A DNA stretch of 64,000 bases from the IMG/VR virus record IMGVR_UViG_3300045988_023867, one strand, 5' to 3'. Made by a program: the position numbers and the translations under genes. The DNA is from a virus. This document shows, piece by piece, positions 2,248 to 56,261 of the stretch. A model generated the notes under the pieces. It worked only from the letters and a program-made list of their open reading frames with translations, made no database searches and was not told where the DNA came from. The number at the start of each line of letters is the position of its first letter. The stretch's first letter is position 1.

Positions 2248-2296
2248 TGTCCATCCTCTACGGGGGGCGGGAGGAACGAAGTTCCGACCTTTGGCT
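2248..2296 (+). repeat. GC-rich element, extended form: core CATCCTCTACGGGGGG, then GCGGGAGG, then hairpin GGAAC-GAA-GTTCC, then CGACC
   Basis: Intergenic, directly after the stop of ORF 1970-2227. Shares its core with at least 15 other sites. Confidence 0.85.
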
Positions 2297-3316: not shown

Positions 3317-4767
3317 ATGTATATGGTGAACCTAAACAAGATAATGTTACGTTTACCAAAGACCAAGCAAATGCAGTTGATGATTTAATTGGATTTATAG
3401 CTGCTAAATGGGATGATAAGAATTATATTCATGCTCTTGTCGGAGCTGGCGGAGTTGGAAAGACTTTTGTTATTAAGTATGTTATACAGAATTGTAAATT
3501 CAGTTCTAGTGTAATTGTCTGTGCTGCTCCAACACATAAAGCTTGTAGAGTTCTTAGTAAAGCTATTAACGGAAAAGCGGTTGAAACTATTCAATCTACT
3601 TTTGGTTTCAGACTTGATGTAGATATTGAAAACTTTGACCCTGAGAATCCAGCTTTTAATCCTATTGGTAAAGTAAAACTATTAGAGAAAGAAGTTAGAC
3701 TTCTTATTATAGATGAAGCTTCTATGCTCAATTCTAAACTAGTGAATTACATTAACAATTTCTGTCGCAAACGACAAATAAAAGTTATCTACGTTGGTGA
3801 TGGAGCACAATTACCGCCTGTTAATGAGAAAACTAGTAGAGCATTTACTATTGCTACTAAGACTAATGTATTAAAAGAAGTTGTGAGACAAGGAGATAAT
3901 AATCCTATCACATATCTTCTTGAACTACTTCGGTCTGATATTGCTAATAAACGTTATGATATGCTTTCTTATATAAGTAATCCTAAACATAAAAGTGCTT
4001 ATAATGAATTTGGATGTGGATATACTGTTTGTAGTCCTTCTGAATTTGATTATCATATAGAACAAGCATTTACTGATGAAGAATATTCTAGGAATGTAAA
4101 TAAGTATAAAGTTATTGCATATACTAATGCTAAAGTTACAACTTGGAATAATTATATTCGTAAAGCTATTGTTAAAGGAGCTGAGAAAAGTATTATTACT
4201 AGAAATGACTTAATAATGTCATATTCTACTATTGTTGATGATTTTAATGATACTATTATACAGAATAGTGATGAATATATTATATATGATATAGCTGATT
4301 TTCAAGACCCTATTCATGATTTCAAATGTTTTATGGTTAAATTTCAAGCTATTAATGGAGGTAAGATTACACAACCTCTATGTATTATTGACCATAATGA
4401 TAAATTCACTATTCAATCTTATTTTAATAAACTTAATAATCTAATTAATGATGCTAAATCTGCTACAAGTGTTACTAGAGCTGGTAAATGGAAAGAGTAT
4501 TTCAAATTTAAACGGAAATATCTATTAGCTAATAATATACTTAATCCTTATGGTAAAGTACTTTTTAGTAGAGATATTGATTACGGATTTGCTATAACTT
4601 CTCATAGAGCTCAAGGTTCGACTTATAATACAGTTTTCGTAGATGTTAATGATATGGTATATGATAAGTATGGACATCCTTATACTAATCAAGATGAACT
4701 TCTACGTAGATTGTATGTTGCTTGCAGTAGACCATCAACAGAATTATTCTTGTGCTATGGAAGATAA
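3313..4767 (+). CDS. SF1 DNA helicase, Dda/RecD-like
   Basis: Walker A is GAGGVGKT and Walker B is LLIIDEASML. Motif III is YVGDGAQLPPV, and the C-terminal helicase motif is ITSHRAQGSTYNTVFVD. Confidence 0.75.
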   Translation: MNVYGEPKQDNVTFTKDQANAVDDLIGFIAAKWDDKNYIHALVGAGGVGKTFVIKYVIQNCKFSSSVIVCAAPTHKACRVLSKAINGKAVETIQSTFGFRLDVDIENFDPENPAFNPIGKVKLLEKEVRLLIIDEASMLNSKLVNYINNFCRKRQIKVIYVGDGAQLPPVNEKTSRAFTIATKTNVLKEVVRQGDNNPITYLLELLRSDIANKRYDMLSYISNPKHKSAYNEFGCGYTVCSPSEFDYHIEQAFTDEEYSRNVNKYKVIAYTNAKVTTWNNYIRKAIVKGAEKSIITRNDLIMSYSTIVDDFNDTIIQNSDEYIIYDIADFQDPIHDFKCFMVKFQAINGGKITQPLCIIDHNDKFTIQSYFNKLNNLINDAKSATSVTRAGKWKEYFKFKRKYLLANNILNPYGKVLFSRDIDYGFAITSHRAQGSTYNTVFVDVNDMVYDKYGHPYTNQDELLRRLYVACSRPSTELFLCYGR

Positions 4768-5065
4768 AGATAATAAAGCTCGTAAATTCGCTATTAAATA
4801 TAAAGGTAAATCTTGCGAATTTATAAGACCAAATGATAATAGAGAAAAAGGACGTGTTGTAGGATATAATACGAGAAATGGTCTTATTATTGTTAGAGTT
4901 CATAAAAATTTTGGATGGCGTAGAATAGATGAGCCGGAAGATATTTTTGTTTATACAAGATTTAATCTAGATAAATATTTGTTCTATTATGTACATCCTG
5001 ATAACATTATTATAAATGAACAAAACGTGCGAAAATTGTCCAGCAAGACTTCTAAACGAAAATGA
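4757..5065 (+). CDS. Hypothetical protein
   Basis: Internal ATG of track ORF 4643-5065, lying just past the helicase stop. 103 aa. Confidence 0.3.
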   Translation: MEDKDNKARKFAIKYKGKSCEFIRPNDNREKGRVVGYNTRNGLIIVRVHKNFGWRRIDEPEDIFVYTRFNLDKYLFYYVHPDNIIINEQNVRKLSSKTSKRK

Positions 5066-5510
5066 AGTTATATCTAATAATATAGGTAATGTTTATTCTA
5101 AAGTTTTATACGTGTTTCCACGTTATGATGAAGAAGCAATCAAGGACTTAAAAGAAATATATAGTCTTGCTACTGGAAGAAACTTTGAAGAAGAATGTTA
5201 TCTTACCTATGCTGTTAGATGTAATACTAGTTCTAAATATAATTGTTGGGATGATGCGGTTGTAAAGTGCAGTCATTTATTCTTTAAAGATTGGATTAAA
5301 ACATCTTATGAACATACAATAGTGTTTGGAGATGCTTATAAACTTTTCTTTAGAGATAAACCTGATTTTACTCATCATAGAGTTAATATCTGTGGTATTA
5401 ATCGTACTATACATTTATATGGCTCTCTTGGAATAAAGCATTATAATGCTGATAAATATAAAGTATTAAAAGACTTACTTGTCAAAGAACTTAGTGCTTA
5501 TAATATATGA
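5016..5510 (+). CDS. Hypothetical Cys-rich protein, possibly a degenerate family-4 UDG-like fold
   Basis: N-terminal CENCP motif with further conserved Cys and His. Sits immediately upstream of the DNA polymerase. Any UDG resemblance is weak. Confidence 0.4.
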   Translation: MNKTCENCPARLLNENEVISNNIGNVYSKVLYVFPRYDEEAIKDLKEIYSLATGRNFEEECYLTYAVRCNTSSKYNCWDDAVVKCSHLFFKDWIKTSYEHTIVFGDAYKLFFRDKPDFTHHRVNICGINRTIHLYGSLGIKHYNADKYKVLKDLLVKELSAYNI

Positions 5511-5522
5511 AATATATAAGAA

Positions 5523-7880
5523 GTGATTGATTGTAGAGCTGCGGACGTTGAAGTACTTCCAAATTTTTATTCTATTACTTTTATTAGTCTTAATGATTAT
5601 CTGAAAGTATTTGCAGATTGTGTTAATGATAAAGGTAAACCTATACCATTAGTTCAAAAACTGACTGTTGCTGAAATTAAACGTAGACTTGATACTGTTA
5701 AGTGTGATGCGTTTTATATTACAGATAAAGACGATAGTCAATTATTGAGTTTAGTTGGTTATCTTAATGCGATGCGTAATAAAGGAATTAATGTTTATAC
5801 TTATAATGGACTTAGCTATGATAATCTTATGATAGCTGGGTTTCTTATGAATGTTAATTACTATGATAATACTAAGGACTTAATAAAGTATCTATATAAT
5901 CTTAGTAAAAAGATTATTTCTCTACAAGAAGATAAGGAACAACTATATAATGATTTTCAGATTAATACTGTTAAACGTTTTAAACTTCCTTATATTGGTA
6001 TTGATGTTATGCGAATATTCGCTCTTAATAAAGCTGGTGTTAGAATTGATAAAGATACAGGAGAACGAAAAGCTACTCCTAAAGGTCTTAAACAAACTTC
6101 TATAAATCTTCAATGGTTTGAATTACTAGAATATGAACTTCCTCCTATTTGTGACAAAGATGTAGAACTTTATTATGATAATCTATTATATAAAGGACTA
6201 CCTCCTGACAAAGTTAATAAACTTGTTGACAAGTGGGATAGATATATATTAGATGAATATATTCCACCTATGATGCATTATAATAAAAATGATGTATTTA
6301 TTGTATGTGAAATTGTTCGTCTTAATCCGGAAGAAATTAGGTCTAGATATTCTGTTAGTAGTGTATATAAAGTTGACCTTCTTAACAGTAGTCGTAGTAA
6401 TATGGCTGATAAACTGTTTGAGAAATTCTATTCAGAACGAAGCGGTCTACCACCTGAAAAATGGAAAGGTAAAAAGACTGAAAGAACTGCTATGAAACTT
6501 AGTCGTGTTATATTTGATAATATCGAATTTAAAACACCTCAACTTAAAAGTTTTCTTGATAGAATTAAAAAGAAAGTTCTTTATAGAGTTAATAAAGAAG
6601 AATTTAATGAGATTCTAACTATTGGAGATACTACTTATAGTATGGGAACTGGTGGGCTTCATAGTCAAGATATTCCTATGGAAATATGGAGTACTAGTGA
6701 TTATGGATGTAATGGTGTTATACCTTGTCCATCTCCTACGGGGGAACTTCAAAAAGCAGAACCGTTTACTTTAGTACATTGGGACATTAATTCAATGTAT
6801 CCGTCAATCATGAGTTCTTATTGGATATATCCAGAACATATGATTAAATCGGTATTTGTAGGATTGATAACGTGGATGAAAGATACACGAGTTACTGTTA
6901 AACATAGTTTAGAAGAAATTATAGATGGAGTTCCTAGAGAAGTTCTAGCGTTAGTGCTAAAGATTGTGATAAATTCTATATATGGTAAGCTTGGATTCGA
7001 AAAAGGAGATTTGTATGACAGATTAGCTGTATTGAAAGTAACGATAAATGGACAATTATTAATCTTAATGTTGATAGAGGAATTAGTACAGAACCATATC
7101 AAAGTTGTTAGTGCTAATACTGATGGTCTTATGGTTAAGATTAAAGATAGTCAATGGGACGTGTTTAACGAAATTGCAAGTAGATGGGAACAAAGGTCTA
7201 AGTTGAAGGCGGATGCCGACATCGTACATTGCTTGATAGCTAGGGACGTAAATTGCTATATAGCCCAATTCCGCACTAAGAAAGGTTTAAAGCTTGAATA
7301 TAAAGGAGCTTTAAATCCTCTTATGTATGCTGTTGACTTACAAAAAGGTTATGATATGCCTATTGTTGCACAAGCAGTTAGTAACTATTTTCTTGAACAT
7401 AAACCTGTAATGGAAACATTACGTAATGCTACTAATATTCTTGACTTTTGTAAAACTCAAAACGTTGGACGACAATTTCATGTAGAACAAACGTTTGTTA
7501 ATAATCAGCAAGTTCAAAGAGTTGTATGTCAAAGATATGTTAGATTTTATGTATCTAATACAGGTTGTATAGTTGAGAAAGTTCATAACGATACTGCATC
7601 TCGTTCTCGTATGGCTGCTGGTTCAGTTGTTACTGTTATTAATACTCTTGATGATATGGATATTTCATTGCGGAACATAAATTATAAGTATTATTACGAA
7701 GAAGCGATGAAGATTATTAATCCTATTAAACTAGGAATTAGTCCTAAAGGTAAAGGACGTACTCGTATTAAGAAAGCCTATGGGCAATTTAATAGTCTTT
7801 TTGATGATTCCGCATTTGAAGATGTCGAAGAAGATAATATTGAATTAGATGATTATGAAGACACTGGATTTGATGTATGA
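5523..7880 (+). CDS. Family B DNA polymerase with 3'-5' proofreading exonuclease
   Basis: Exo I is DVEVL, Exo II is YNGLSYDNL, Exo III is YNKND. Pol motif A is DINSMYPSI, motif B is KIVINSIYGKLGF, and the motif C region is SANTDGL. GTG start. Carries an in-frame GC-rich element at 6723-6750. Confidence 0.85.
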   Translation: MIDCRAADVEVLPNFYSITFISLNDYLKVFADCVNDKGKPIPLVQKLTVAEIKRRLDTVKCDAFYITDKDDSQLLSLVGYLNAMRNKGINVYTYNGLSYDNLMIAGFLMNVNYYDNTKDLIKYLYNLSKKIISLQEDKEQLYNDFQINTVKRFKLPYIGIDVMRIFALNKAGVRIDKDTGERKATPKGLKQTSINLQWFELLEYELPPICDKDVELYYDNLLYKGLPPDKVNKLVDKWDRYILDEYIPPMMHYNKNDVFIVCEIVRLNPEEIRSRYSVSSVYKVDLLNSSRSNMADKLFEKFYSERSGLPPEKWKGKKTERTAMKLSRVIFDNIEFKTPQLKSFLDRIKKKVLYRVNKEEFNEILTIGDTTYSMGTGGLHSQDIPMEIWSTSDYGCNGVIPCPSPTGELQKAEPFTLVHWDINSMYPSIMSSYWIYPEHMIKSVFVGLITWMKDTRVTVKHSLEEIIDGVPREVLALVLKIVINSIYGKLGFEKGDLYDRLAVLKVTINGQLLILMLIEELVQNHIKVVSANTDGLMVKIKDSQWDVFNEIASRWEQRSKLKADADIVHCLIARDVNCYIAQFRTKKGLKLEYKGALNPLMYAVDLQKGYDMPIVAQAVSNYFLEHKPVMETLRNATNILDFCKTQNVGRQFHVEQTFVNNQQVQRVVCQRYVRFYVSNTGCIVEKVHNDTASRSRMAAGSVVTVINTLDDMDISLRNINYKYYYEEAMKIINPIKLGISPKGKGRTRIKKAYGQFNSLFDDSAFEDVEEDNIELDDYEDTGFDV
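6723..6750 (+). repeat. GC-rich element copy, forward orientation, inside the DNA polymerase gene
   Basis: TTGTCCATCTCCTACGGGGGAACTTC, translated in frame as CPSPTGELQ just upstream of Pol motif A. Confidence 0.85.
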
Positions 7881-9240
7881 TAAATTAGCTGATAAATGGG
7901 GTATTGATAACCGTGGCAATGGAACTGTGCATTGCATTAAACCTATGGAATATACCAAACTTATTATGGTTATTCTTAAACGAATGCAAGCTAAGAATCC
8001 TGACTTAAAAGTATTTATAGCTGTTGATAGTTATTATACAAGAAAGAATATTGTTGATACTCTTAAAGAAAATAATATAAATCAAGACCATATTACTATA
8101 TTAAGTGAAACTTATATTAATGCTAAGTATAGATATACATATAATCTTGCTATTTTTGTTGGTCTTGAACGTTATAGTCTGTATGTTAATTGTGTAGGAA
8201 CTACTTCTGATTTTCATCTGTTTATTATAACTAAAGATGTTATTAAGACTGATGATTTAGCAGAAATATACAAACATTATCCTGCTGTAAATACAGAACT
8301 TAGTGCCAATGATTTAAATGCTGTTAATTTAAGTTCCCCCGTAGAGGAGAGAAGAGTAGGTTGTATATTGCCTACTGCTGATAAAGAACTGTATGATAAA
8401 TATACTGATTTTATAACTCAGTGTATGAATATATTTGGAGATTTTGATAATATCACTAAAGCTAGAATTGGAGATACCAAAGCTGGTATTAGTGGTACAG
8501 AATTTCGTAATCAATTAGCTTTAGATAATGGTTGGTCTCCTGAATTGGATATGACCATAGGATTTAATAGACAAGTTGATGAATGTTATAATCCTAATAT
8601 TCTATTAGATAAAGCTACTACTTGTTATGAGATTATGCGCAATAGAAGTAATCTCCTTACTGATAGTGATGCGAAACTGCCTATGATATTAAGTCTTGTT
8701 CTTGGAAATCCTGATAAACAAATAATGATTATATCTAAAAGAGGAGACTATGCTGCTAAAGTAACTAAATATTTAGAAGAATATGGAGTTGCTGTTGGAG
8801 ATTATCATGATTGTATTGAACCGAAACTTCTATTAGACGAAAACGGTATTCCGGTGACTTATAGCAAGAAAAGCCAAAAATGTGGGCAGCCTAGATACAT
8901 CAAATCTAAGGCTATTTCCAGCCTCAATGAGCGATTATTTCAAGAAGGACGATTAAAAGTATTATCCGTCAAAAATAGTTCGTCAGACGAGCTTAGAATC
9001 AATGTTGATATGTGGATAATTACAAGTCCTCTATGCGATGAAGTTACAGCTCTTAAATACCGTTTTAATAAGGTTATGTTTAACTCTACACCACATATTA
9101 TATATAAGGTATTCATGCAGGGAACTGTTGAAGAAACGAAGCTAATGCAGCTTAAACCGAATCATTATACTGATGTGATAACTACACTAAGTCAAGATAC
9201 AAATTTTGATGAAAATAATTGTGGAATTGTTTGCGGATAA
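7873..9240 (+). CDS. Hypothetical protein, with possible degenerate helicase C-terminal-like segment
   Basis: ORF starting at the ATG overlapping the polymerase stop (ATGTATGA). Contains the GC-rich element at 8332-8357, read as SSPVEERR. Confidence 0.5.
   Translation: MYDKLADKWGIDNRGNGTVHCIKPMEYTKLIMVILKRMQAKNPDLKVFIAVDSYYTRKNIVDTLKENNINQDHITILSETYINAKYRYTYNLAIFVGLERYSLYVNCVGTTSDFHLFIITKDVIKTDDLAEIYKHYPAVNTELSANDLNAVNLSSPVEERRVGCILPTADKELYDKYTDFITQCMNIFGDFDNITKARIGDTKAGISGTEFRNQLALDNGWSPELDMTIGFNRQVDECYNPNILLDKATTCYEIMRNRSNLLTDSDAKLPMILSLVLGNPDKQIMIISKRGDYAAKVTKYLEEYGVAVGDYHDCIEPKLLLDENGIPVTYSKKSQKCGQPRYIKSKAISSLNERLFQEGRLKVLSVKNSSSDELRINVDMWIITSPLCDEVTALKYRFNKVMFNSTPHIIYKVFMQGTVEETKLMQLKPNHYTDVITTLSQDTNFDENNCGIVCG
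8332..8357 (-). repeat. GC-rich element copy, reverse orientation
   Basis: GTTCCCCCGTAGAGGAGAGAAGAG, read in the host ORF as SSPVEERR. Confidence 0.8.
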
Positions 9241-12319: not shown

Positions 12320-13516
12320 ATGAGAAGAACTGTAACTAACGGTAATCTTACTAAAGAATTTATACTTTCTAAAATAAGTCAAGTTAGCATTTTTAGTGCT
12401 TATACAGGTGTAGATACAGAAGTAATAGAAAACTGTATTAATACCGGAGAATTTATATCAAGTCCTTTTCGTGTTGATGAACATCCTAGTTTCGGTTTTA
12501 AATATGACAATCGTGGTAAGTTAAAAGCTAAAGATTTTGCTGGTTATTTTCATGGAGATTGTTTTGACGCTGCTGCATTAGTTATCAGCGAGATTATTCA
12601 TAAGAATGTTGATATATCTAATAAAGGTTGGTTTATATTTGTTCTTAAACATATTGCATATACTTTTAGAAATATAATATATGGTAAGGATAAAGACGAA
12701 AATATCGAAGGAATAATAGCCGAAGGAGTTAATGCTGCTAGAAATAGAAAACATATTATAGAATTTGTTCCTAGACAATGGAATAATTATGATAAAAACT
12801 ATTGGGGAAAGTTTCATATCCCTATTAGTTATCTTAATACTAATTTTGTTTATCCTGTTGATTACTTTTATATTAATAGAAAAGTTAATCCTGAACCTAA
12901 ATACTATTATGAGAATGATAGAAAGGATGTATGTTATGCTTATATGCTAGGACAAGATAAACGAGGAGTATATAATATTAAACTGTATTTTCCTAATAGA
13001 AAACATGGAACTGTTAGATTTATTACTAATAGTAATTGTTTAGAAGGATTACTCAATCTCGAACTTAGTGAATATGATTCTATTATTATAACTAAAAGTA
13101 CTAAAGATAGAATAAGTCTTAGAGCGTATTTAGATGCAATAGACTTGTCTATCCCCTACGGGGGAACAGCCCTGCGAACCATAGGTCTTGTTAATATACC
13201 TCATGAATCATATAAACTTAAACAAAATGAATACGATTGGTTACGAGCAAAATGTCCTAATGGACTTATATTGTCTTTAATGGATAATGATAATACGGGA
13301 TATCGTGAAGCTATTTGGTTAAGAAATAATTATAATATAATACCGTTATGTATTCCTAGAGAATATGAAGTTAAAGACTTTGCTGAATTACGTAGTAAAT
13401 ATTCAATCGAAACTATAAAAGAACTTATTAATCTATCATATAATTATATAGCAGATAATTATGCAGAAAACGAATTTTCTTGGGATACGGGAGAAAGCTA
13501 TCCTCAACCGTTTTAA
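12320..13516 (+). CDS. DnaG-like DNA primase (zinc-ribbon-like N-terminus plus TOPRIM)
   Basis: SPFRVDEHPSFGF...FHGDCFD aligns with the DnaG CPFHxExTPSF...CFGCG pattern, but most cysteines are replaced. The TOPRIM DxD motif is MDNDNTGYREA. A GC-rich element is inserted at 13145-13176, read as PYGGTA. Confidence 0.6.
   Translation: MRRTVTNGNLTKEFILSKISQVSIFSAYTGVDTEVIENCINTGEFISSPFRVDEHPSFGFKYDNRGKLKAKDFAGYFHGDCFDAAALVISEIIHKNVDISNKGWFIFVLKHIAYTFRNIIYGKDKDENIEGIIAEGVNAARNRKHIIEFVPRQWNNYDKNYWGKFHIPISYLNTNFVYPVDYFYINRKVNPEPKYYYENDRKDVCYAYMLGQDKRGVYNIKLYFPNRKHGTVRFITNSNCLEGLLNLELSEYDSIIITKSTKDRISLRAYLDAIDLSIPYGGTALRTIGLVNIPHESYKLKQNEYDWLRAKCPNGLILSLMDNDNTGYREAIWLRNNYNIIPLCIPREYEVKDFAELRSKYSIETIKELINLSYNYIADNYAENEFSWDTGESYPQPF
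13145..13176 (+). repeat. GC-rich element copy, forward, inside the primase gene
   Basis: TTGTCTATCCCCTACGGGGGAACAGCCCTGCG, read as SIPYGGTALR. Confidence 0.85.
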
Positions 13517-14398: not shown

Positions 14399-15631
14399 AT
14401 GGAACAATGGTTATATAGAAAGAATAATAATGAAGTTCCTACACGGTGGAGAGCTGGAATTACCGATAATGGTTTAATTATTGAAGTTGAATATGGAATT
14501 GTCGGTAAAGCTAGTAGATTTGAAGCTTATAAAGTTACTCAAAAGAATGCCACTGCTGAACTTGAAAGTAGATATAGAGATAAACGTAAGACAGGATATA
14601 TGTCTATTGAAGACATTAAAGACGATGGTGATATTTTTCGTTCCCCCGTAGAGGATGGAGACATAAATAATCTCTATCAATATCTTGCCGCTTATCTACC
14701 AAAATATCGTACTAATGAAAATAATGGTGGACTATTACCAATGCTTGCCAAATCTTATACAGGTAAAGTATGGGATAAAGTTCCTGTTATGATTGGACAA
14801 TATAAGATTAATGGTCTTAGATGTTTTATTAGTGCTGAATATAACAATGGAGATATGTTTAAGCCTATAAAACTTAGATTTCAATCTCGTGAAGGTATTT
14901 ATTGGAGCACTCTTAGTAATCTTGAAGAATATCTTCTTACCGTCCTTCCTGAAGATTTAATTACAGCTATGATTGAAGAACAATGGTCGCTTGATGGTGA
15001 GATTTATCTTCCGGGATATACTGTAAATCAAATTAATCATTTTGTTAAAGACGCTAATTGTGTTGAAAATAAAGCTCTTCAATTTTGGTGTTACGATTTA
15101 GCTGTGCCAGAGATGAGTCAAAGTAATAGACTTGTTCTTATTGATAAATATCTTGATAATAGAATAACTAATTTTCATGATTATAAAGAACATCTTAATA
15201 ATGACAAACGTCTTATACGTCTACCTTCTATTTTTATAACAAACGATAATGAAGCTTTAAAATATAGAGATGAGTTTATTGGTCTTGGGTTTGAAGGACT
15301 TATTCTTCGTAATCCTTCTGCTGATTATCAATATGGTCGTAGACGTGTCGGTTATATGGAGAAGTTTAAATCTGCTACTGATGGTAAATTTCTTATAGTA
15401 GATATTTATAAAGAACCTAAGAGAGAATTACCTATTATTCTTTGTCAGAATGATGTAAATACTGCTAAATTTAAAACAAGACTTAGTGCTACTCATGAAT
15501 ATCAACAAATGATATTAAGAGATAAACATCTTTATATTGGAAAATATCTATTCGTTGAATTTGGAGAACGTAGTGGTGTTGAAAAAGTACCCTCTCATAT
15601 AAAGAAAACTCAAATAATACTTGATGAATAA
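14399..15631 (+). CDS. ATP-dependent DNA ligase-like nucleotidyltransferase
   Basis: Motif I is KINGLR, a KxDGxR variant. Motif III is SLDGEIYL, motif IV is FEGLILRNP, and motif V is EKFKS. A GC-rich element is inserted at 14641-14664, read as SPVEDGD. Confidence 0.6.
   Translation: MEQWLYRKNNNEVPTRWRAGITDNGLIIEVEYGIVGKASRFEAYKVTQKNATAELESRYRDKRKTGYMSIEDIKDDGDIFRSPVEDGDINNLYQYLAAYLPKYRTNENNGGLLPMLAKSYTGKVWDKVPVMIGQYKINGLRCFISAEYNNGDMFKPIKLRFQSREGIYWSTLSNLEEYLLTVLPEDLITAMIEEQWSLDGEIYLPGYTVNQINHFVKDANCVENKALQFWCYDLAVPEMSQSNRLVLIDKYLDNRITNFHDYKEHLNNDKRLIRLPSIFITNDNEALKYRDEFIGLGFEGLILRNPSADYQYGRRRVGYMEKFKSATDGKFLIVDIYKEPKRELPIILCQNDVNTAKFKTRLSATHEYQQMILRDKHLYIGKYLFVEFGERSGVEKVPSHIKKTQIILDE
14641..14664 (-). 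repeat. GC-rich element copy, reverse, inside the ligase gene
   Basis: TTCCCCCGTAGAGGATGGAGACAT, read as SPVEDGD. Confidence 0.85.
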
Positions 15632-16240: not shown

Positions 16241-17050
16241 ATGCAATTAAACCTATTAGATATGATTAAAGATATTAAACCTATTATTGGTATAGCAGGT
16301 AAAGCTAAGTCTGGTAAAGATACTGTTGCTGGTATGATTGCATATATTATACGAGAAGGACTATTTAGAGCCGATTATAGGAATTGGAGTATACGTTTTG
16401 ATAAACCAGGAGTTACTAGAGAAATTGGCGCTATTATTCATTTTGCTGATTTTGTAAAAGATATTTGTTCTAGAGTATTTCTTATTAATAGAGAATATTT
16501 TGACAAAATTCTTTATAAAGAACAATTATGCTATCTTATGGATAATGGTAAGTTCGTTAAACTTAACGAAGTACCGAGCGATTATATAATTGCTAATCAT
16601 GCTATATTAAGTACTACTTCCATTGCTTCTCTACTTAAAGGTTATAACAATAAAGTTGCTATTAGCCTTAGAACTATGTTACAATATGTTGGAACAGAAC
16701 TTGGTAGAAATCAATTAGGAGACAATTGTTGGATTAATGCTACTATGTCTAATGCTGGTATAATACGTAATAGATTTGGATTTTGTACCATAGCTGACGT
16801 AAGATTTGCTAATGAATGTGACGCTATAAGAAAACAAAAAGGAGGATTTGTTATTGAAATTAAAAGACCTAATGACGACGAAATTAAACCTAAAGGTTCT
16901 GTTCATATTAGTGAATCTCTTGAAGGTATTAATCCAGATTTTGTTATTGATAATGATGGTAATAAGTTCAAGTTATTTCACCAAGTGTTGTCAGTATTAG
17001 ATAAGATAAATCAATCTTCTCATTCCCTACGGGGGAACAGCCCAAAGTAA
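16241..17050 (+). CDS. P-loop nucleotide kinase, dNMP-kinase-like
   Basis: Walker A is GIAGKAKSGKDT. The track ORF begins at a TTG at 16217; the first ATG is at 16241. The C-terminus is built from a GC-rich element, read as SLRGNSPK followed by the stop. Confidence 0.55.
   Translation: MQLNLLDMIKDIKPIIGIAGKAKSGKDTVAGMIAYIIREGLFRADYRNWSIRFDKPGVTREIGAIIHFADFVKDICSRVFLINREYFDKILYKEQLCYLMDNGKFVKLNEVPSDYIIANHAILSTTSIASLLKGYNNKVAISLRTMLQYVGTELGRNQLGDNCWINATMSNAGIIRNRFGFCTIADVRFANECDAIRKQKGGFVIEIKRPNDDEIKPKGSVHISESLEGINPDFVIDNDGNKFKLFHQVLSVLDKINQSSHSLRGNSPK
17015..17044 (+). repeat. GC-rich element copy, forward, forming the 3' end of the kinase gene
   Basis: TCTTCTCATTCCCTACGGGGGAACAGCCCA, read as SHSLRGNSPK followed by the stop. 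Confidence 0.85.
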
Positions 17051-22953: not shown

Positions 22954-23110
22954 CATCTCATCATTCCCTTACGGGGCGCGGAGGCAACGCAGTTGCCGAC
23001 CTTAAAGTCAGAAGAATCTACAGATATTGTAGATATTGACGATTAAGATATTATTTAAGAATCGGTTGCTTCGCAACCTCAGCCCCCCGTAGAGGATATG
23101 AATGAGATAT
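22954..23110 (+). mobile_element. MITE-like composite: two GC-rich element ends in inverted orientation (imperfect TIRs of about 25 bp) flanking about 105 bp with two GC hairpins
   Basis: Left end is ATCTCATCATTCCCTTACGGGGCGCGGAGG followed by hairpin GGCAAC-GCA-GTTGCC. Right end is hairpin GGTTGC-TTC-GCAACC followed by CAGCCCCCCGTAGAGGATATGAATGAGATAT. Intergenic. Confidence 0.6.
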
Positions 23111-23138
23111 ATCACTAACCATTAATATAGATAAAAAT

Positions 23139-24596: not shown

Positions 24597-27500
24597 TTAC
24601 TTCCCATTAACAATCCATTCAGCAATAGATTGAGTAGGAATAATACCAAGCATATTTTCAGTCAGTTTATAATACTTATTATTTTGGTCTAATTGCATTA
24701 TACGATTAATTCCACGATAAATAGGAATTTGTCTTTTAACATAAACGGCAAGTTTATTCTCACCTTTATACAGACCTGTGGTATAATTAGGATTAAATTC
24801 ATCTCCTTCAATTAGATACTTAGCAATAAATCCAAATGCAGACTGTACATCTTTGAATGATTGACCTAAAGCAACAGGACTTGACCAAAGTTTATCAAAT
24901 TCTGATACAGCACCAATATTATACATAATAGTTTCAGAAGATAAACGGTCTGCTTGATAAAGAGCAAGATTAGCTATAATCTTAGCTGTTTCATCGTCAT
25001 CGTCAGCGGCAAGTAATGCACAACTGGCAGCAATTCCGCCGAGTAGACCATAAGCAATACCTGTAAGTTCTCCTAAAGCTCTACGAATATTAGCTCGTTC
25101 AGCGTTTGACATTGTAGCATAATTAAATTTATAGTTTAAGAAAGTATCAATAAACGCTCTACAAACTTGTTGTACACCAGCAATAAATAGATTAGTGCCG
25201 TCTTCGTTAGCTTTAGCTTTAGCTCTATCAGTAAGTCCTCTAAATTCTGTTGTTGCAAAATCCCAAAGACTTACATAGAATCCACGTTCAATACTTTCTC
25301 TACTTTCATTATAATAACCATTTACACGGAAATGTTTAAGAGCTCCTGTATAAATATGTTTATGATATTGCATAAGTAGACTACCAAATACCCAAGTAGA
25401 TTCTATACGAGCACCACCTAATCTATCATACACACCATGAATCTTTTTATTAACTGATACAACTTTACCTTTAAATTTAGCAAGTTTACCTAAATCTACT
25501 AAACTATCATCTTTAAGTTTAGCATAACCATCTTGTAGTTCAAATTGGTCTATTAATCTAGGTTCAGATTCAAACTGTTTTTTAGCTTCTTTAGTAAGTT
25601 CATTTCTTACTTCTGCATATCTTAATCCATAAGACTTATCACTAAGACTACGTAAGAACTCTGTATTAACATCTTTCTTAAACCAAAGATAATCTTTAAG
25701 TCTATTCTTATCTTCTTTTATTCTATTGATAAACTTAGCATATAGTTCTTCAAGTTCAGCATTACCTTCGATAACTTTACGAAGTGCAACTTCTTCAAGC
25801 ATACGATTATAATTATGGAAATCTCCTATAACAACTTCTCCTTTTTGATTCTTATAAACTCTATTACTAAGCATCATAGAAAGCATAGCAGTATTCTGCA
25901 TAAAATGTTCACCAGCACTTTGTGGACTATAAGCAAAATCTCTCATCTTATTAATTATCTCAATACTATCAATAGATTTAGATGTTTCACGAATACCATT
26001 ATAGTCCACAACTCCCATGAGTTTAATTATCGCATCAGTAAGATTATCACTAGTATCTTTATTCATATTAGCAAGGAAATATGGAACTGCTTTAATATAA
26101 TATCCAAATTTAGCATTTTCCCAATCTTTATGATTGAAGTATTCTCCAGCATAACGTTCCATGAATATATTAGTAGAACCAGTTAATATATTACCAATAC
26201 CTCCTGTAATATTAAACATCATATATTTAGCACTAGCAATATTTTGTCCAACAGCAGCAAATTTATCCCATGTATTCTTACCTTTATATTCATCAAATAA
26301 GAAACGTTTAGACCAAGTTTCAATTAAATCAATAACTCTTTTAGGAGCTTGAGTTTTATAAACTTTTCTATCTTCTGTAGAATTTCTTCTATCAACTGCT
26401 AGATTATTAAATCCTGTAAGACGATAAGATTGAGCTTGTGTTCTCATGTATTCAAGAAGATAATAAAGGTCAAGCTTAGTTTGCGTTTTAGCATTAGCTT
26501 GAATAGCTCCTTTAATAAACTCTTCAAATACTGATTCATAATCTTTATCCATCAGTTTAACATCAAGCTGTCTATTATACTCAGCAGATTCTTCATTATG
26601 TTTCTTAATATCATCAACTCTAGCTTTATAATCTTCATCAGATTCAGTAAGACCTTGTTCCGGTATAGGTTCTATCTTTCTATAAGTCTTGTCCTTCAAC
26701 GAAGCTAATAACGGTATATTAGTTTCTCGGTCATATTCATAACCAATATTATCGCTAATATGTCTATCTGGGTCTAAACTTTGTCCAAATCCAATAGCAT
26801 TAAATGCGGCTTTAACAGTATTAGGGAACGATGATTCTGTCCTTCTCCTACGGGGGAACAGCCCTTTAGCAACGAATGACATAGCAGTATTATTCTCTTT
26901 AGTTAAATCATAAAGAGTATCTTGCATTAGCTTTCTTATTCGTCTTTCATATTCATTAGAATTATCAGTTCTATAATACTTAGCACTACCATTATAATTA
27001 TCAGTATATCTATTATAATTAGCATTAACTGTTTCAGAAAGTGGTTTACTTCTTGTATTATTATATGAAGCTACATAGTTTCTAGTATTACTAGTTTCGT
27101 CTTTAACTCTTATTGTAGTCCAAATACGAATTGGTTCCATCTTACCACTTAAAGGATTAAAGATATGATTTTTATCTTCAAATTCTTTAAGTTTGCCGTC
27201 TCTAATAGCTTGTTCACGTTCTTGCCAATAGTAACTTGTAGGAACAAATTCTATATTCTTATTTAAAAATTTAAGAGCTTTAGAACGTTTTTCATCAACA
27301 TAATCTTTATTAATAACATTACCATTATCGTCAAGTTTAGGAGTAACGTAACCGAATATATCGCTATTAGGTTCATTAGTATATCCTATAAAGATTCCAT
27401 TCTCATCATAATTCTTAGCATTAGCTACTGTTCTCCATGCAGTAAAGAACTCTTTACCTTTTTGTTTAGCAGCGTCTTCATCTAAATCATAAGTAATTTT

Positions 27501-30500: not shown

Positions 30501-33500
30501 GTCTTCACGAGAAGTATATAAAGCGCTATTCTTAATAACTTTACTAACATTTCCTCTACGGAACTGATAGCCTTCTACAACAAAAGCATATTTAATAATG
30601 TCAATAGCAGTTAGTCTAATAATAGGATTAGTATTATTGAACGCTGCATCGAACATTTTATATATACTCTCCATGTCTTGTTGTTGGTCGTTAAAACGGA
30701 TTATTTGGCTACTTATTCCGCGTGTACGGAACTCAAATCCGTTAAACAGGTTGACGTTCAGTTCAGAAAAGATAGTTCGTTGTGAGCCAAGCAAATGGCT
30801 TTGTACGAAGTGTACCTTTTGAGCCGGAGTAAGTTTAGAGAAAGCATTAACTTCTTCTTGTGTAGGATTCGCAACATTATCTATATTAATATTATAGTTA
30901 ATATCATAACCAAATCCATAGATTCTCATTGTCTCATCCTCTACGGGGGAACGTCCCTCTGATTCTACTTTACTTGCAGTAAATATATCTACTGTAATAT
31001 TGCCATTTTTTTCAAGTTCAATAGGTTGTGATATAATAGCAGAATTGTTCTTATACATATATCCAAGAACATACTTCTTAAAATCATTATAAAGTTTCTC
31101 ATTAACACTTCCACTAATATAATTCTGAATACTATTGATAGCATTAACAAAATTATGAGATTCGGTTTCAAATAAACCTTTATTAATAAGAATGCTAGGA
31201 ACTGTACTATATCTCATGAATGCATCTAATGCAGGATAAGCACTTGGTTTTTCAGTTTCTGCTAAATATAATTCTGGCATAAATACTCCTGTTTCAGTAG
31301 CTTTAGTAATACCAGGATAAATAGCTTCTAATAATGGTTCTCCATTTACATTAATTCTATTAGCGTCGTCGCTATTAATAATAGTTCCTATATCATCAAT
31401 TACTTTACGTGTACTATATATAGTTTGTTTAGCTCCAAATTTATCAGGATTAAGTACTTTAACATGATTAGCTATAATACGACTATAATCATTAATATAA
31501 TTAAAGTTAAGTATGGCAGCTAAATCTATCAACATACTTGTTTCATCATATACACCACTATTTTGTGCTGCAAATCGTTCTTCAATAGTTGGAACATCTA
31601 TTGTAAATACAGAAGCATTATCTTTATTATCAAAACTAATAGTACTATTAGGATACATCTTAGCAAACTCTTCTCCATATTGTTGTTGAAGAGCAGTCAT
31701 AACTTCTGTAATATTATTGTTATCAGTAACTACTTCATTGCGTACTTTAACTCCTAAATCATGAGCTATACGTTTAATTGCTGTATGAATAGGATTATAA
31801 TTACCACGAACAAATACAGATTGAGATTCATAATAAGCCTCAACTATTCTACTAACACCCGGCTGACGAAGCCAAGCCATAGCTGTATAAGCATCACAAC
31901 CAATATCAAATAAAGTTTTAAATGCAGCAAACGTATATTCATTCTCATTCTTAATAGCTCCTTCTTTGATAGCATCTAGAATATGAGCAGTAGTATGAGA
32001 ACTTGCAACTGTAATATAATCACCTACTACGTTCTTATTGTTCTTACTATTTCCTATTCGATTATGATAGACTATGCCATCTTTGACAGGAAATGCCTGA
32101 GCAGCAATATCAAGATTAACTCTATTACCATATCTTACTCTAATAGGAACACTAAGTTCAGCTTTAGCAACATTGAATACAGAGTTACCTGTATCGCGAG
32201 CAACACTAAATGCTTTCAATGTAGCACCTCCCATAGCATTTCTATGGAATTGAATCTGGTCAAAAAGATTATAAACGTTTCTTTGTTTAGCACCAACAGC
32301 ATCAAGTTTATCAAGAGCTTTATTTGCAGCAGTAATATCATCAAAGTTACTACGAGCAAGATTCTCTTCGAGACTTGATTTATCATTCATGATAGCAATC
32401 ATACTATCAACGATACGATTGTTTCGAGCGCGACGGTTATTTTGGTCTTCAATAGGAAGCTGTTTAAATTCCTCATAAGTAGGTAATCCAAAAGCAACAG
32501 CACGTTCATTAATAATATCTCCGAATTTATCTCTTGATAATTCTTTAATATCATCTATTGTAAGACTATTAGCATTATCATTAATACGTCTGAACATATC
32601 TCTTTGTTCAGCAATAACGTCAGCTATTCTACTATACTTATCATAGAACTGTATAAATGCTGGATTATCTCCATATAGTCTACTATAAGTAGGCATAATA
32701 GAAAGGAGTCCACTAACTCTATCAGCAAACTTCAATTCTTTATTACGAAGAAAACCATCAACAATAGGTTTAAATTCATCAGGCAATTCATGATAAGTAT
32801 CACCCTCATCAAGAAGTTCTTTTACTCTCTTTTCAAGATAATCTTCTAAATCTTTATTACTCTTACGAATAACTTCAAAATATTTATCTTTAATAGATTG
32901 TTTAGTATCTCTATCTACTTGAAGCATATCTCGTGTTATACGTTCTTTATCAGAATTTCTAAGAACATGAGATACATATCTTCCATAAGTAGCAGCTTCA
33001 GCAGTACTATCGCTAAATTCTACTTTATGAATACGACCATCTTTACCAAGATAAGTCTCATAGGCAATACCATAAATAGAGTCAACGTCAAAGTCAGAAC
33101 CAGTCTGTGTTACCCATTCATCTGGAACTACAATAGTACTTCCCATCCATTCAGGTAGAAAACCTACAACTTTCATAACAGCCATAGACTGTTTACCCTC
33201 TGTTGGAATACGATAACCAATACATTTAAGAACTTCTTCATCAATATCTTCAATACGAATCTCTTTAACAAGATTACCATTTTCATCATATTGATTGAAC
33301 ATAGCTTTTGCCCATTTAGGAAGAAGTATTTCTACTTCTGAACCATCTTTATGATAGCCAAGTTCAACACGTTCGCCAGTATCAGTTTCAATAGTTTCAC
33401 CAGCTTTAAGTTGTTTACTCTTTTTAATAAGTCCATCAAGTCCAACACTAGTTATTTGTGCTCCATGCCATCCAGGAAGTTTTTGTCTTGTAATAAACTT

Positions 33501-36500
33501 ATTAAATTGACTTTGAGCAATACTTTCAATCTTACTTGAAACTATATTCATATAACTAGGCATAACAGGTCCTGCATCTTCATTCTTAACAGTAAGATAT
33601 TCAATAGTATTACTATCAAGTCCAAGACGAGCAGCTTCTATTAATGCTAGTTTATATATACGATTGTAATCAACTTTACCGTTATTGTCTCCTATAATAC
33701 GATAGTTTTTATCAAACTTAATACCATACTTATCCATAAGACTATTAAAGTCTTCACGAATATTAGCAACATAAGCTCTAATAAAGTTATTCTTATGACT
33801 AGCAACAGCAGCTTGACTATTATCAAGTATTTTTTTCATCACTTGAATACCTGCTTTATTCTGAGCATCAACCATATGTTGAGGAACATCTTGTTGTTTA
33901 TAAAGATACATATAACTAAATGGTTGTTTAACTTCTTTAGCTTTTTCTCTAAATACAGCAAGATTTTCAGGAGTTACAACTCCTTCATTATCCCAATAAG
34001 TAAGTACATCATAATTAGCAGCTTTACTTGTTTCTTGAGTATTAACTTGGTCAATATCATTTTCTATCATGAAATTAGCAAGTTCTCCCAAACTTGTTCC
34101 TTCAAGGAACTTAGGTACAAGAACAAACTCTGCATTCTTTATCTGACGTGGAAGATGTCTACCAAAACGTTTATTATAATAATGGTCATAGTAGAAGTTC
34201 TTCATTACTTGTATAAATCCTTGTAATTCATTAGGATTAATTTGATTAACGTCAGTAGTATTATCTGTTAGTTGTTCAATCAATCTAGCATACTTAGGAT
34301 ATTCTCCTAATATCTTTAATCTGCGAGCAGCTTCATATATAGTAATATAAGATTGAGCATCATTAATAGTAGTAGTTGTAGCACTAGTTTCTCCTTCACG
34401 GTCAGCAGGAACATAACCAAAACCTTCAGCAATTTCTTCTGCTTTAGCTTTATCTGTTCCAGCAGCTATAAGTTTATCATAAAGTATATTACGATTACTG
34501 CTAGGTCTAATACTATTCTTAACAGTAACAGCATTCCAACCAGTTCTAAGTGTTACAGGTTTACCATTAGGAAGAGTTAATACTTTATCTCCATTTATAA
34601 GTTGAGAACCTGCTATTTCATTAACAGATTGAGTAAATGGACTATCAACTCCTTGTGTAGATTTATAATTAGTTATAGAATAACTTGTTCCACCAGCTTG
34701 ACTTTCTTTAGCACGTTTAAGAAATGTTTGAGGATCTTTATAATACTTACTATTTCCTTCAAATAAATCATCAAAATTAGCAAAATGAATATAAGCATTA
34801 AGACCGTATTCTATAATTTCATTATCGCTAATACCTTCAAGAAATGAACCAAACTTATTATGAGTCTCGTTAACAAAATAAGTTTGATAAGTATCAATCC
34901 ACTTAGTAACTAATTGTTCAAGTTCTGATTCAACTCTTTCACTAAAACTGATAGTCGCAGACGCATTTGACGATTCTGAATATCCTGATAGATTAATTTC
35001 CCCCGTAGAGGATGTGGAGGACACTAATCTCTCAAGCTCTTCACCAATATTATAACCAACACTACTATCAAGTTTAGTAAATTTAAAAGCATTACCTGTT
35101 AGTTTATTTCCATCATAAACTCCTTTTTTAGGATTATAATGAAACCATTCAACAAGATGTTCTTTATCATTATGTTTTATATCTTCAAGAGCTTTATAAT
35201 AATCGAATATTTCTCCTTTAACGATATTCATAAACCCATTAAATAATGGATGCTTTTTATTTATAGAACGAGCTTCTGGATGATTAACTTTAAATTCTTC
35301 TCTAGCAATAGATTCTACTTCATTCGCATAAGCAGAAACATAATCGCTAAATACAGCTTGTCCATCATATTTAGCATTAGCTAAATAATAATTTCCTTTA
35401 CCGTCATCAGTAAATATTCCACTAAAGTAATGATATTGCCATCCTTCTTTTGAGTCATTAATGACATAAGCAATTCTTTGTTCAGTACCTACTTGTGCAT
35501 TTATATTAAGAAGTTTACCCGGACTTGTTTTAATAACTTCCGGAGTATTAGTAACAAGATTGATAACTTCTTCTACTGTAGCAGCTTGTGCATTAAGTTT
35601 AGTAAGTTGTTCGTTAGCAATATCTATATTAGCTACTTTAATAAATTCTTTTTTTCTATCTTTTACATAAGTATTCATAGCTTTAGTATCATATTGCCAT
35701 AAATCATAAGCATGATACTTAGGCATACTTATTGCAAAATTCTTAGGAGCGTCTGACGGTATTCTCATCAAAAATGGAGCAGTTTCTATTTCTTGTCCAT
35801 TAGCTGTTATAGTATTATATTTTTTATAAGTTTGAAGTTTCTTATGATAAGCATAAAGTCCTACTAAATAATAGTCCCCATCAGACATTTTAGTATAATC
35901 AGTATTAGTTCCTGATTGTTGATTGCTAACTCCATTAAGTAAATAAGGAGCTATAATCTTTTCTGCATAAGGACTAAGTTCATAATCTCCATTAGGTTTT
36001 TGTCTGAATAAACCTACTATACCTTGTTCTGGATTATCAATAAGAATATTACTATAAGCATATTCTGTAGAACGAAGTTTCTCTTTAACCCAATTATTAA
36101 GAATTTCTCTATCTCCACATATCTTAGCAATATTAGTAATGAAGTTATTATATATAACATCACTATTAAGATTACCAGCAGTATTTCTAGAATTAAGTTC
36201 AGCTTTAGATAAAGTATAAGGTTCAATCGCTAATGCTATATTACCTAATGCTTCTTCTGAACCTACAAGATATTCTCCATCAAATTTAGGTAGTTCAAGT
36301 TCTATATATTTAGCATTTGGAACTTGTGCAGCAAGTGCTTGACGATAAGCATTTAATCTACGTCTATTTTCTGCTTGTACTTCTCTATATTTTAAATCTC
36401 TACTTTCTTTTTCAGCAAGACTTTTCTTAGCAGCACTATTTACTTTTTGAGCATAACTTAATAATCTATATAGATTATCTTTTCTATGAGTTTCTGAATC

Positions 36501-55400: not shown

Positions 55401-56261
55401 TTATTTCGGAAAAGTATAATTATAGAAATAACTACGCCAAGCATCACCATCTTTATCCCCTGATTCAGCTTGCCAATCAATAATAACTCCAGCTTTAGCT
55501 TTATTCTTTAATTGTTCCCATTGATAATAAGGATTAGTTCCATATTGACTAGCTCCAAGATTAAACACAGGATGTTTCATACCACGACATAACATCTTAT
55601 ACATACAGTAATATCCAATAGCTTCAATTAATATATAATTGTTAGGAATAACAGGAATATCACATTTATAATATTCACTATATTCAGTTTCAATTTCATT
55701 GGATATAATATCTATATATTTAGCATCAAAGTTAATCTCTATTGTATGGTCATCAATAAGGACATAACCTCTATCTTCACATCCTCTACGGGGGGCGGAA
55801 TAAAGCTCCTCAACAACAGTTGCTTGTTTTGTAACATCAGGAGTATTATTATGTATAGCTAAACTTCCATAAGTTTCTTTACCATTATAACCAGTATCAA
55901 CTATTGACATAGTATTCGACAATTCTAATGACTTGTCGGGCTGTTCCCCCGTAGGAGATGGAGAAGAACAACTACCACATCGAACCGATATAACATCAAC
56001 TTCACATCCATTATCATCATATACTTTAAGTCCTTTTGTACTAAATGGACAAGCAGTTCTAGCAATATTATTAATAACTTCTAATCGACGTTTCTTAGGA
56101 ACTACTCTAAGAACATCTAATTGTCCCATAGCATCTATAGTCCACGATATAACTCTAGGTATCCAATCGCTACCATCTGGATTAAAATCGTTGTCTATTT
56201 TTGCTATTATCTTTTCTACTGAAATAGTATTATTGTTTTGCATAATCAATAGTATTATCAA
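55401..56261 (-). CDS. Hypothetical virion protein
   Basis: 286-aa ORF containing two GC-rich elements in opposite orientations, read as APRRGCEDRG and SPSPTGEQP. Confidence 0.6.
   Translation of the reverse strand: MIILLIMQNNNTISVEKIIAKIDNDFNPDGSDWIPRVISWTIDAMGQLDVLRVVPKKRRLEVINNIARTACPFSTKGLKVYDDNGCEVDVISVRCGSCSSPSPTGEQPDKSLELSNTMSIVDTGYNGKETYGSLAIHNNTPDVTKQATVVEELYSAPRRGCEDRGYVLIDDHTIEINFDAKYIDIISNEIETEYSEYYKCDIPVIPNNYILIEAIGYYCMYKMLCRGMKHPVFNLGASQYGTNPYYQWEQLKNKAKAGVIIDWQAESGDKDGDAWRSYFYNYTFPK
55775..55803 (+). repeat. GC-rich element copy, forward on +
   Basis: CTTCACATCCTCTACGGGGGGCGGAATAA, read in ORF 55401-56261 as YSAPRRGCED. Confidence 0.85.
55938..55969 (-). repeat. GC-rich element copy, reverse on +
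   Basis: GGGCTGTTCCCCCGTAGGAGATGGAGAAGAAC, read in ORF 55401-56261 as SSPSPTGEQP. Confidence 0.85.

Follow-up and report, generated by a model that had tools for sequence, protein, structure and literature searches.

A short GC-rich motif dispersed through crAss-like phage genomes crosses the DNA polymerase gene and appears to be conserved as DNA

The polymerase gene and the motif in its loop

The DNA analysed here is a stretch of 64,000 nt from a virus (IMG/VR record IMGVR_UViG_3300045988_023867; hereafter the window), and the subject of this report is a short GC-rich element in it, the 19-mer CCATCTCCTACGGGGGAAC, which lies in sense orientation at 6729–6747 (+) within the gene of a family B DNA polymerase (PolB). 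The window has a GC content of ∼30% and a strand switch near 24 kb. Its genes run in the order helicase, UDG, PolB, SNF2 ATPase, RecT, primase-like and ligase, after which the opposite strand carries a virion RNA polymerase gene of 4454 aa and structural genes, and p-crAssphage (Carjivirus) has the same gene order. The PolB gene shares ∼70% nucleotide identity with Carjivirus communis and other Intestiviridae/Crudevirinae, while relatives of the window at 80–98% identity are present in IMG/VR.

The open reading frame (ORF) at 5523–7880 (+) encodes 785 aa, is the orthologue of p-crAssphage gp16, and has a product matching Pfam PF00136 (E=1.5e-7). Its AlphaFold2 model (predicted local distance difference test, pLDDT, 84.8) matched Pol alpha and archaeal PolB structures in Foldseek (E ∼1e-12), and a profile search aligned ‘IVHADIASYYPSI’ to motif A of KOD, which puts motif A (D421-INSMYPS) at 6783–6806 (+), with no intron in the window copy. 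The residues D8/E10, N95/Y99/D100 and Y253/D257, which resemble Exo I–III, vary little or not at all, and NTDG at 532–535 is invariant. By these sequence motifs and the modelled PolB fold, the product is predicted to be a proofreading DNA polymerase of family B.

The 19-mer, at 63% GC against 30% for the genome, is read in frame as P-S-P-T-G-E, with E408 of this peptide 13 residues ahead of the motif A residue D421; the protein around the element is ...NGVIPCPSPTGELQKAEPFTLVHWDINSMYPS..., within which the sequence runs ...IPCPSPTGELQKAEPFTLVHWDINSMYPS.... The element falls in a variable surface loop (residues 390–414; 6690–6764, +) that is modelled as coil between the strand 386–389 and the motif A strand 415–422, which carries D421. 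The pLDDT drops below 50 at residues 406–410, and the length of the loop is hypervariable among homologues. A preliminary description of this DNA had proposed a GC-rich in-frame segment 13 residues before motif A, had taken it for a copy of a repeated element, and had supposed that it occupies a loop, and on all three points our results agree with it. An intein or group I intron at this place is ruled out, since the element is only 19–26 nt long, in frame and uninterrupted.

The repeated nature of the element is clear from counts over the window. The 19-mer has 9 matches at ≤3 mismatches versus 0 in 100 shuffles, the word YACGGGGG has 15 copies, and CTACGGGGG occurs 15 times versus 0.019 expected. 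A scan with a position weight matrix (PWM) found 16 sites at ≥30.8 bits and none between 12 and 30.8 bits, and 20 shuffles gave none above 12 bits. In the window the consensus reads tctCCATCYYC-TAC-GGGGGAAC(a)gccc. Within the motif (∼19–26 nt) a pyrimidine tract leads into TAC, a G run and a lineage-specific tail, and four of the window copies belong to a subtype ending in GGGGGGC. Long ORFs contain 14 of the 16 copies, the other two being intergenic, and strand use is 8+/7−.

Each of the three Intestiviridae subfamilies sampled has related families of the motif, at some 15–30 copies per genome and with six motif variants in six genomes. Carjivirus has 16–19 copies (variant ..GGGGGGTC), Whopevirus ∼21 (..TACGGGCCAG), Rudgehvirus jaberico ∼28 (..TACAGGGGAgtTTACAkCAAT), Wotdevirus ∼21 (..TACGGGGGAGGTC) and crAss002 ∼29 (..TA[CT]GGGGGAA); cr110_1 and cr11_1 have 16 and 13 copies. 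The polymerase element is thus almost certainly a member of a conserved, dispersed motif family.

Conservation as DNA and the age of the polymerase copy

Sense copies are read in all three frames (PS[PS]TGE, IPYGGT and HSLRGN), antisense copies in both stop-free frames (SPVEDG and PRRG), and the ratio of sense to antisense copies over six genomes is 60:44. The preliminary description had reported the peptide SPSPTGE in four other proteins, which holds approximately: SPSPTGE itself is encoded at 41260 (−) and 55953 (−), and the variants SPSSTGE and TSSTGE at 47773 (−) and 35007 (−), but the copies in other frames, in antisense and between genes had been missed.

Within PolB the peptide is well kept, with [SP][SP]TG retained in 110 of 120 homologue clusters (57–98% identity) whose loop is otherwise hypervariable, and T406 and G407 invariant in 55 aligned PolBs. 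A sample free of bias with regard to the motif, its loci being picked by protein patterns only, gave 62 distinct IMG/VR loops. Thirty of these loops are short (30–31 residues) and motif-free, and 28 of the 32 long loops (44–66 residues) carry YYCYC-TAC-GGG, always read S-T-G, leaving 4 of the 32 motif-free. In all 28 motif-bearing long loops Thr is encoded by ACG, which makes up ∼8% of Thr codons in the background of the same genes, and Gly is nearly always GGG. Since these fixed codons are common to copies in other frames and on the other strand, the constraint lies at the level of DNA. The PolB element therefore appears to be conserved as a DNA sequence with the added peptide as a by-product, and it is likely that this peptide is a mere passenger in the loop. 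For the functional co-option that had been suggested earlier we found no evidence, as what is conserved is the codons, and these are shared with other frames and strands.

The polymerase copy occupies the same position in Carjivirus, Delmidovirus and Whopevirus, in loci L001–L004 and in every relative of the window clade, each time in the variant of its own lineage: CCA TCC TCC ACG GGG GGT in p-crAssphage, TCC TCT ACG GGG GGT in Delmidovirus cr110_1, and CTT TAC GGG GGA, in a different frame, in Whopevirus. The PolBs of Rudgehvirus and Wotdevirus lack the entire loop. The loop, being missing from these more distant orthologues, counts as an insertion when set against the ancestral PolB, of 14–36 residues and variable length. 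Since most long loops and no short one hold the motif, that insertion goes back to the ancestor of the long-loop (Crudevirinae) clade. The copy is thus very probably ancient. The preliminary description had held that the insertion was either recent or co-opted and had looked to related polymerases without the segment; such polymerases exist (Rudgehvirus, Wotdevirus and 30 of the 62 loops), but the close relatives are all filled, as is the same site in the other genera, and no polymorphism was found at 80–98% identity. Nor are the orthologous segments of unrelated nucleotide sequence, as an ancestral peptide without any insertion would have had it; they are related in nucleotides.

Other copies behave in the same way. 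At least nine window sites are orthologous in Carjivirus in the same orientation and frame (those in PolB, the SNF2 ATPase, the primase-like gene, ligase, the gp45-like gene, two in the gp47-like gene and two in the tail-tubular-like gene), and several of them are also present in Whopevirus. Each orthologous copy fits the variant of its own genome, which indicates that the copies changed in concert within each lineage. Among the relatives at 80–98% identity, all 54 of 54 mappable motif sites coincide with window sites, with no novel or empty site among those mapped, and all 15 alignable window sites are occupied. This absence of presence/absence polymorphism rules against a recent mobile insertion of the kind of miniature inverted-repeat transposable elements or GC clusters. 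No target-site duplication was seen, and some lineage-specific copies correspond to an insertion of 6–12 residues while others, such as the SNF2 site, involve no change in length.

In flank-anchored alignments, positions −1 to +9 of the motif differ at 1% versus 8.3% in the flanks, and within the Carjivirus population the motif differs at 2.3% versus 8.7% in the flanks, both in loci that were fetched by a motif pattern and so are subject to an ascertainment bias, which the unbiased PolB sample and the GGGGGGC-subtype sites offset only in part. The copies of that subtype lie outside the retrieval pattern and are equally conserved. In the 5′ arm, the flank-anchored alignments show only C↔T changes.

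A different insertion does occur close by. In two relatives whose PolBs are 95% and 81% identical to that of the window (L254, IMGVR_UViG_3300045988_025338, at 4270–5292, and L300), motif A is split after N423 (HWDIN | SMYPS; window 6791/6792) by 1,023 bp that match the group I intron family RF00028 of Rfam at 51.1 bits (gathering score 50) and carry an ORF for a GIY-YIG homing endonuclease (Pfam PF01541, 3e-8). The intron site lies 15 codons downstream of the motif copy, and the window PolB is without it. More distant PolBs have insertions of ∼1 kb elsewhere (L293, L294, L296, L299, L306, L307, L309, L312, L315, cr3_1 and cr271_1). The intron and the motif are alike in being inserted next to PolB motif A and present in the clade (L254, L300), but the motif copy is 19–26 nt long, is translated and not spliced, encodes nothing of its own and stands 15 codons upstream. 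The truly mobile element at this spot of PolB in the clade is the group I intron with its GIY-YIG gene, and not the motif.

Copies, close pairs and hairpins

The remaining window copies are as follows. At 2251–2269 (+) an intergenic copy of the GGGGGGC subtype is followed by a hairpin, GGAAC-GAA-GTTCC, with compensatory changes in relatives. A copy antisense in the SNF2-like ATPase gene (8333–8351, −), read SPVEER, is orthologous in Carjivirus and Whopevirus, and one in sense in the primase-like gene (13149–13167, +; gp21 orthologue), read IPYGGT, has the same site and frame in Carjivirus. The DNA ligase gene carries an antisense copy (14640–14658, −; SPVEDG, residue 83) whose site is shared by Carjivirus and Whopevirus. 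At the C-terminal end of the dNMP (deoxynucleoside monophosphate)-kinase-like gene, a copy at 17020–17038 (+), read HSLRGN, coincides with a 12-residue extension relative to orthologues. In the strand-switch region, the second intergenic copy (23081–23099, −), again of the GGGGGGC subtype, precedes a hairpin GGTTGC-GAA-GCAACC. The virion RNA polymerase gene has two antisense copies, at 26841–26859 (+; FPRRRR) and 30934–30952 (+; SPVEDE, at an indel relative to orthologues), and one in sense at 34997–35015 (−; TSSTGE). In the 1970-aa gene (gp45 orthologue), a degenerate antisense copy (CATCCCCTACGGGGCGC; 39077–39095, +) was found by the PWM scan only, and a sense copy (41250–41268, −; SPSPTGE) is orthologous in Carjivirus and Whopevirus. 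The gp47-like gene holds an antisense copy of the GGGGGGC subtype (47416–47434, +; APRRGS) convergent with a sense copy (47763–47781, −; SPSSTGE), and the tail-tubular-like gene likewise holds an antisense copy of that subtype (55779–55797, +; APRRGC) convergent with a sense copy (55943–55961, −; SPSPTGE). These two pairs, 47416–47781 and 55779–55961, are 349 and 166 bp apart, each within one gene. Both bracket highly variable protein segments, both are conserved in Carjivirus, and in both the antisense member is of the GGGGGGC subtype.

Where neighbouring copies lie ≤600 bp apart, as 19 do over the six genomes, every one is inverted and none direct; density predicts ∼18 close pairs, about half of which should have been direct. 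The intergenic pairs of crAss002 are perfect 19-bp palindromes. An alternation of orientation along the window (12 runs versus 8.5 expected) was dropped, as it was not reproduced in Carjivirus, and BLAST block ends were dropped as candidate recombination breakpoints, as they are simply the ends of the loci.

We folded seven copies on either strand and two longer intergenic segments as DNA, nine folds in all. The hairpin that the motif itself could form, TCYYC-TAC-GGGGGA, folds at energies between −1.5 and −5.1 kcal/mol (z relative to shuffles, +0.5 to −2.1). A stable hairpin element was thus rejected: the folds are weak and not better than those of shuffles, the changes are one-sided C↔T only, and there is no Rfam match. 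The T residues in the 5′ arm of the Carjivirus copies are kept at ∼98%, even though C would make the better pair, and this speaks for readout of the sequence over folding.

Some intergenic copies are directly followed by hairpins with GNA triloops, in the window at 2270–2285 and 23056–23075, and in crAss002 (L235/L236) GAGCGAAGCG modules follow motif copies near 4225, 47855 and 86200. For the hairpin at window position 2259 (+), relatives have compensatory changes (GGGAC/GTCCC and GGCAC-GTA-GTGCC), and only such adjacent hairpins show them; the GNA hairpin may be the second module of a composite element. A word resembling AGTGA(A/T), noted by eye only, stands ∼17 nt upstream of the pyrimidine tract at several intergenic copies, in Rudgehvirus jaberico (L231/L232) at 12119, 23883, 55431, 85907, 86019 and 90262 and in the window at 23117–23122.

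We also looked outside the family. The first 50 kb of crAss001 (Steigviridae; L316, MH675552, bases 1–50000) lack the TAC-GGGG family. They have 14 copies of another word, YCTTCTGGAG, on both strands at 27 times the expected number; it cannot fold, and it includes CTGGAG, a recognition word of the type IIS/IIG kind. When 185,579 GTDB species genomes were scanned with the exact Carjivirus 19-mer, there were 38 matches, of which 34 were p-crAssphage contigs (93–99% identity) and 4 were single matches in high-GC genomes, at chance level, so that no copy of this 19-mer was found in a host genome. A host-derived repeat, whether like the repetitive extragenic palindromes of Bacteroidales or a mimic of a CRISPR repeat, was rejected on this exact-match scan. 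The p-crAssphage-like contigs lie inside bacterial assemblies of unrelated taxa (L191, L198, L199, L202, L205; Chitinophaga silvisoli NZ_QTJV01) and in metagenome-assembled genomes labelled Clostridia, Mycoplasma and ‘bacterium’; in these GTDB representative genomes they look like contamination or misbinning. The PacBio crAssphage paper gives only methylation motifs, used for host prediction, and in the searchable literature on the motif sequence and on repeats, promoters or hairpins of crAss phages no description of the motif was found, which is absence of evidence only.

A candidate recognition site and its rivals

We somewhat favor the reading that the motif is a cis element acting at the nucleotide level, presumably a protein recognition site with lineage-specific variants, and that the PolB peptide is its passenger. 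A crisp asymmetric site, lineage variants, stable positions and indifference to frame and strand fit best with the DNA site of a co-evolving protein, and such a reader is proposed as the reason why the variants differ between lineages and change in parallel at orthologous sites. For the narrower claim that the motif is a functional protein-recognition site, we put the chances, judging from sequence, at slightly under even. Under this reading, the PolB copy would have entered or arisen in the surface loop before the motif A strand in the ancestor of the Crudevirinae long-loop clade and would have been kept since, translated as the passenger peptide x-S/P-T-G-x in a predicted disordered loop. 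The motif itself would be a cis-acting DNA site for a sequence-specific, co-evolving protein, acting independently of the direction of transcription as a signature tag of the genome, with intergenic forms that would comprise inverted pairs, palindromes or copies beside stable GNA-loop hairpins. The inverted-pair rule may reflect a paired function.

Among the closest analogues are the DNA uptake sequences (DUS) of Neisseria and the uptake signal sequences (USS) of Pasteurellaceae. These are short asymmetric motifs in many copies, equally on both strands and mostly intragenic, read in all frames within poorly conserved protein segments. They have lineage ‘dialects’, keep their positions from one related genome to another and form inverted pairs in intergenic DNA. 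The crAss motif likewise is over-represented, uses both strands equally and all frames, and has lineage variants at conserved positions, and the likeness would extend to its intragenic copies and intergenic inverted pairs. It differs in belonging to a virulent phage and not to a competent bacterium, without known uptake machinery or receptor, in being longer (∼19–26 nt) at a density of ∼0.2–0.3 per kb, and in having only a putative reader. The stoperators of cluster A mycobacteriophages and the promoters of the T7 group are also similar, with tens of near-identical asymmetric sites per genome, some of them intragenic, and a consensus that differs among related phages with parallel change at orthologous positions; however, theirs are oriented with transcription while the crAss motif is divided 60 sense to 44 antisense, and no repressor or dedicated polymerase specificity is known for it. 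A transcription signal (promoter, terminator or stoperator) was rejected on this orientation, on the mostly intragenic copies and on consensus scans at chance level.

Several observations count against a recognition site. The inverted-pair rule may be explained equally well by counter-selection of deletion-prone close direct repeats in a RecT-encoding phage, and the number of close pairs is about what density predicts. The comparison of the motif with its flanks carries the ascertainment bias noted above. Gene conversion without function can likewise make all the copies of a lineage change in parallel, and lineage-specific copies often coincide with insertions of 6–12 residues, as a mobile or copy-paste repeat would give. 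At the gathering threshold, Rfam had 0 matches in the whole window, ARAGORN found no tRNA or tmRNA (transfer-messenger RNA) in it, scans for sigma-70 promoters and intrinsic terminators around the intergenic copies were at chance level, and this sequence analysis identified no trans-acting factor for the motif.

The main rival holds that the motif is selfish or neutral, a short repeat that template switching or annealing mediated by RecT has dispersed into loops able to tolerate it and that gene conversion keeps uniform (molecular drive), with no function for the phage. This would account for GC-rich copies in a 30% GC genome that are confined to variable, indel-rich loops, for their concerted change within each lineage, and for clean small insertions such as +6 residues (about one motif length) at the N-terminus of the Whopevirus ligase and +12 at the C-terminus of the window dNMP kinase, and these phages do encode RecT and a PD-(D/E)XK nuclease. 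However, we saw no presence/absence polymorphism among relatives at 80–98% identity, at least nine sites are stable across genera, and the core is 4–8 times more conserved than the flanks; a tract of 19–26 nt is also very short for efficient ectopic conversion, and the motif, as the long PolB loops without it demonstrate, can be lost but seldom is (4 of 32). We regard a selfish repeat as unlikely, though it is the most serious of the alternatives. The GC clusters of yeast mitochondria and the palindromic elements of Rickettsia are comparable as short GC-rich elements in AT-rich genomes, with in-frame loop peptides and small lineage-specific insertions, but the crAss motif is ∼20 nt against their 30–150, is weakly palindromic, has no insertion polymorphism, and has a core conserved at genus-level divergence and not decaying.

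It is less probable again that the motif works as a single-stranded hairpin (TCYYC-TAC-GGGGGA) in DNA or RNA, either for initiation by the virion RNA polymerase, in analogy to the hairpin promoters of N4, or as a signal for priming or single-strand initiation. In its favor, single-stranded DNA is an efficient template for the virion RNA polymerase of phi14:2 and double-stranded DNA a poor one; no common motif was reported upstream of the early transcripts of that phage, its middle promoters being sigma-70-like (bioRxiv 10.1101/2020.03.07.982082), and an early-promoter motif is not known. Within the window clade, the C↔T changes of the 5′ arm opposite an invariant G run are compatible with G-T/G-U wobble, and the intergenic copies adjoin GNA-triloop hairpins with compensatory changes, and GAGCGAAGCG modules in crAss002, or form inverted pairs that are perfect 19-bp palindromes. 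Against it are the weak fold, no better than shuffled, the Carjivirus arm in which T is conserved though C pairs better, and the presence of copies in late genes and in both orientations, which is unlike early promoters; in addition, there is no Rfam match, and the crAss001 word YCTTCTGGAG cannot fold.

Very improbable is a function of the S/P-T-G peptide in the polymerase with the nucleotide likeness being secondary; the invariant T406/G407 in 55 PolBs and the [SP][SP]TG of 110 of 120 clusters would agree with it, but the codons are fixed as rare ACG and GGG, the same nucleotides recur in other frames, in antisense and between genes, half of the distinct sampled PolBs do without the loop, and the model shows this segment as disordered. 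That PolB received a recent foreign insertion, one of the readings in the preliminary description, for which the contrast of 63% with 30% GC and the orthologues lacking the loop would speak, can practically be set aside, since the site is filled in four genera and all close relatives and the Carjivirus 19-mer was not found in host genomes.

If the motif is a recognition site, its use to the phage can be envisaged only tentatively. It is possible, though we hold it rather doubtful, that a lineage-specific signature marks the genomes of Intestiviridae crAss-like phages and that a phage protein co-evolving with it serves as its reader, an analogue of self-recognition by uptake sequences or Chi. 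As another possibility, the virion RNA polymerase or the primase, both with a preference for single-stranded DNA, would use the dispersed copies as entry sites. In that event, gut crAss phages would fall by their variants into groups compatible for recombination or co-infection, and the genomes so marked would include that of the most abundant human gut virus, with the signature written even through essential genes.

The crAss-like phages dominate the human gut virome, yet their cis-acting DNA signals are almost entirely uncharted. A motif of ∼20 nt at the same sites across genera, in all frames and on both strands, and in a different variant for every lineage, means that a substantial constraint on sequence overrides coding preferences even in the replicative polymerase. 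It also explains the odd conserved islands STG, PVEDG and PRRG in hypervariable loops, which would otherwise be mistaken for protein motifs, and it can serve as a lineage marker. If a protein does read the motif, it would give an experimental handle on a step of crAss phage biology, for which crAss002 and Rudgehvirus jaberico can be cultured.

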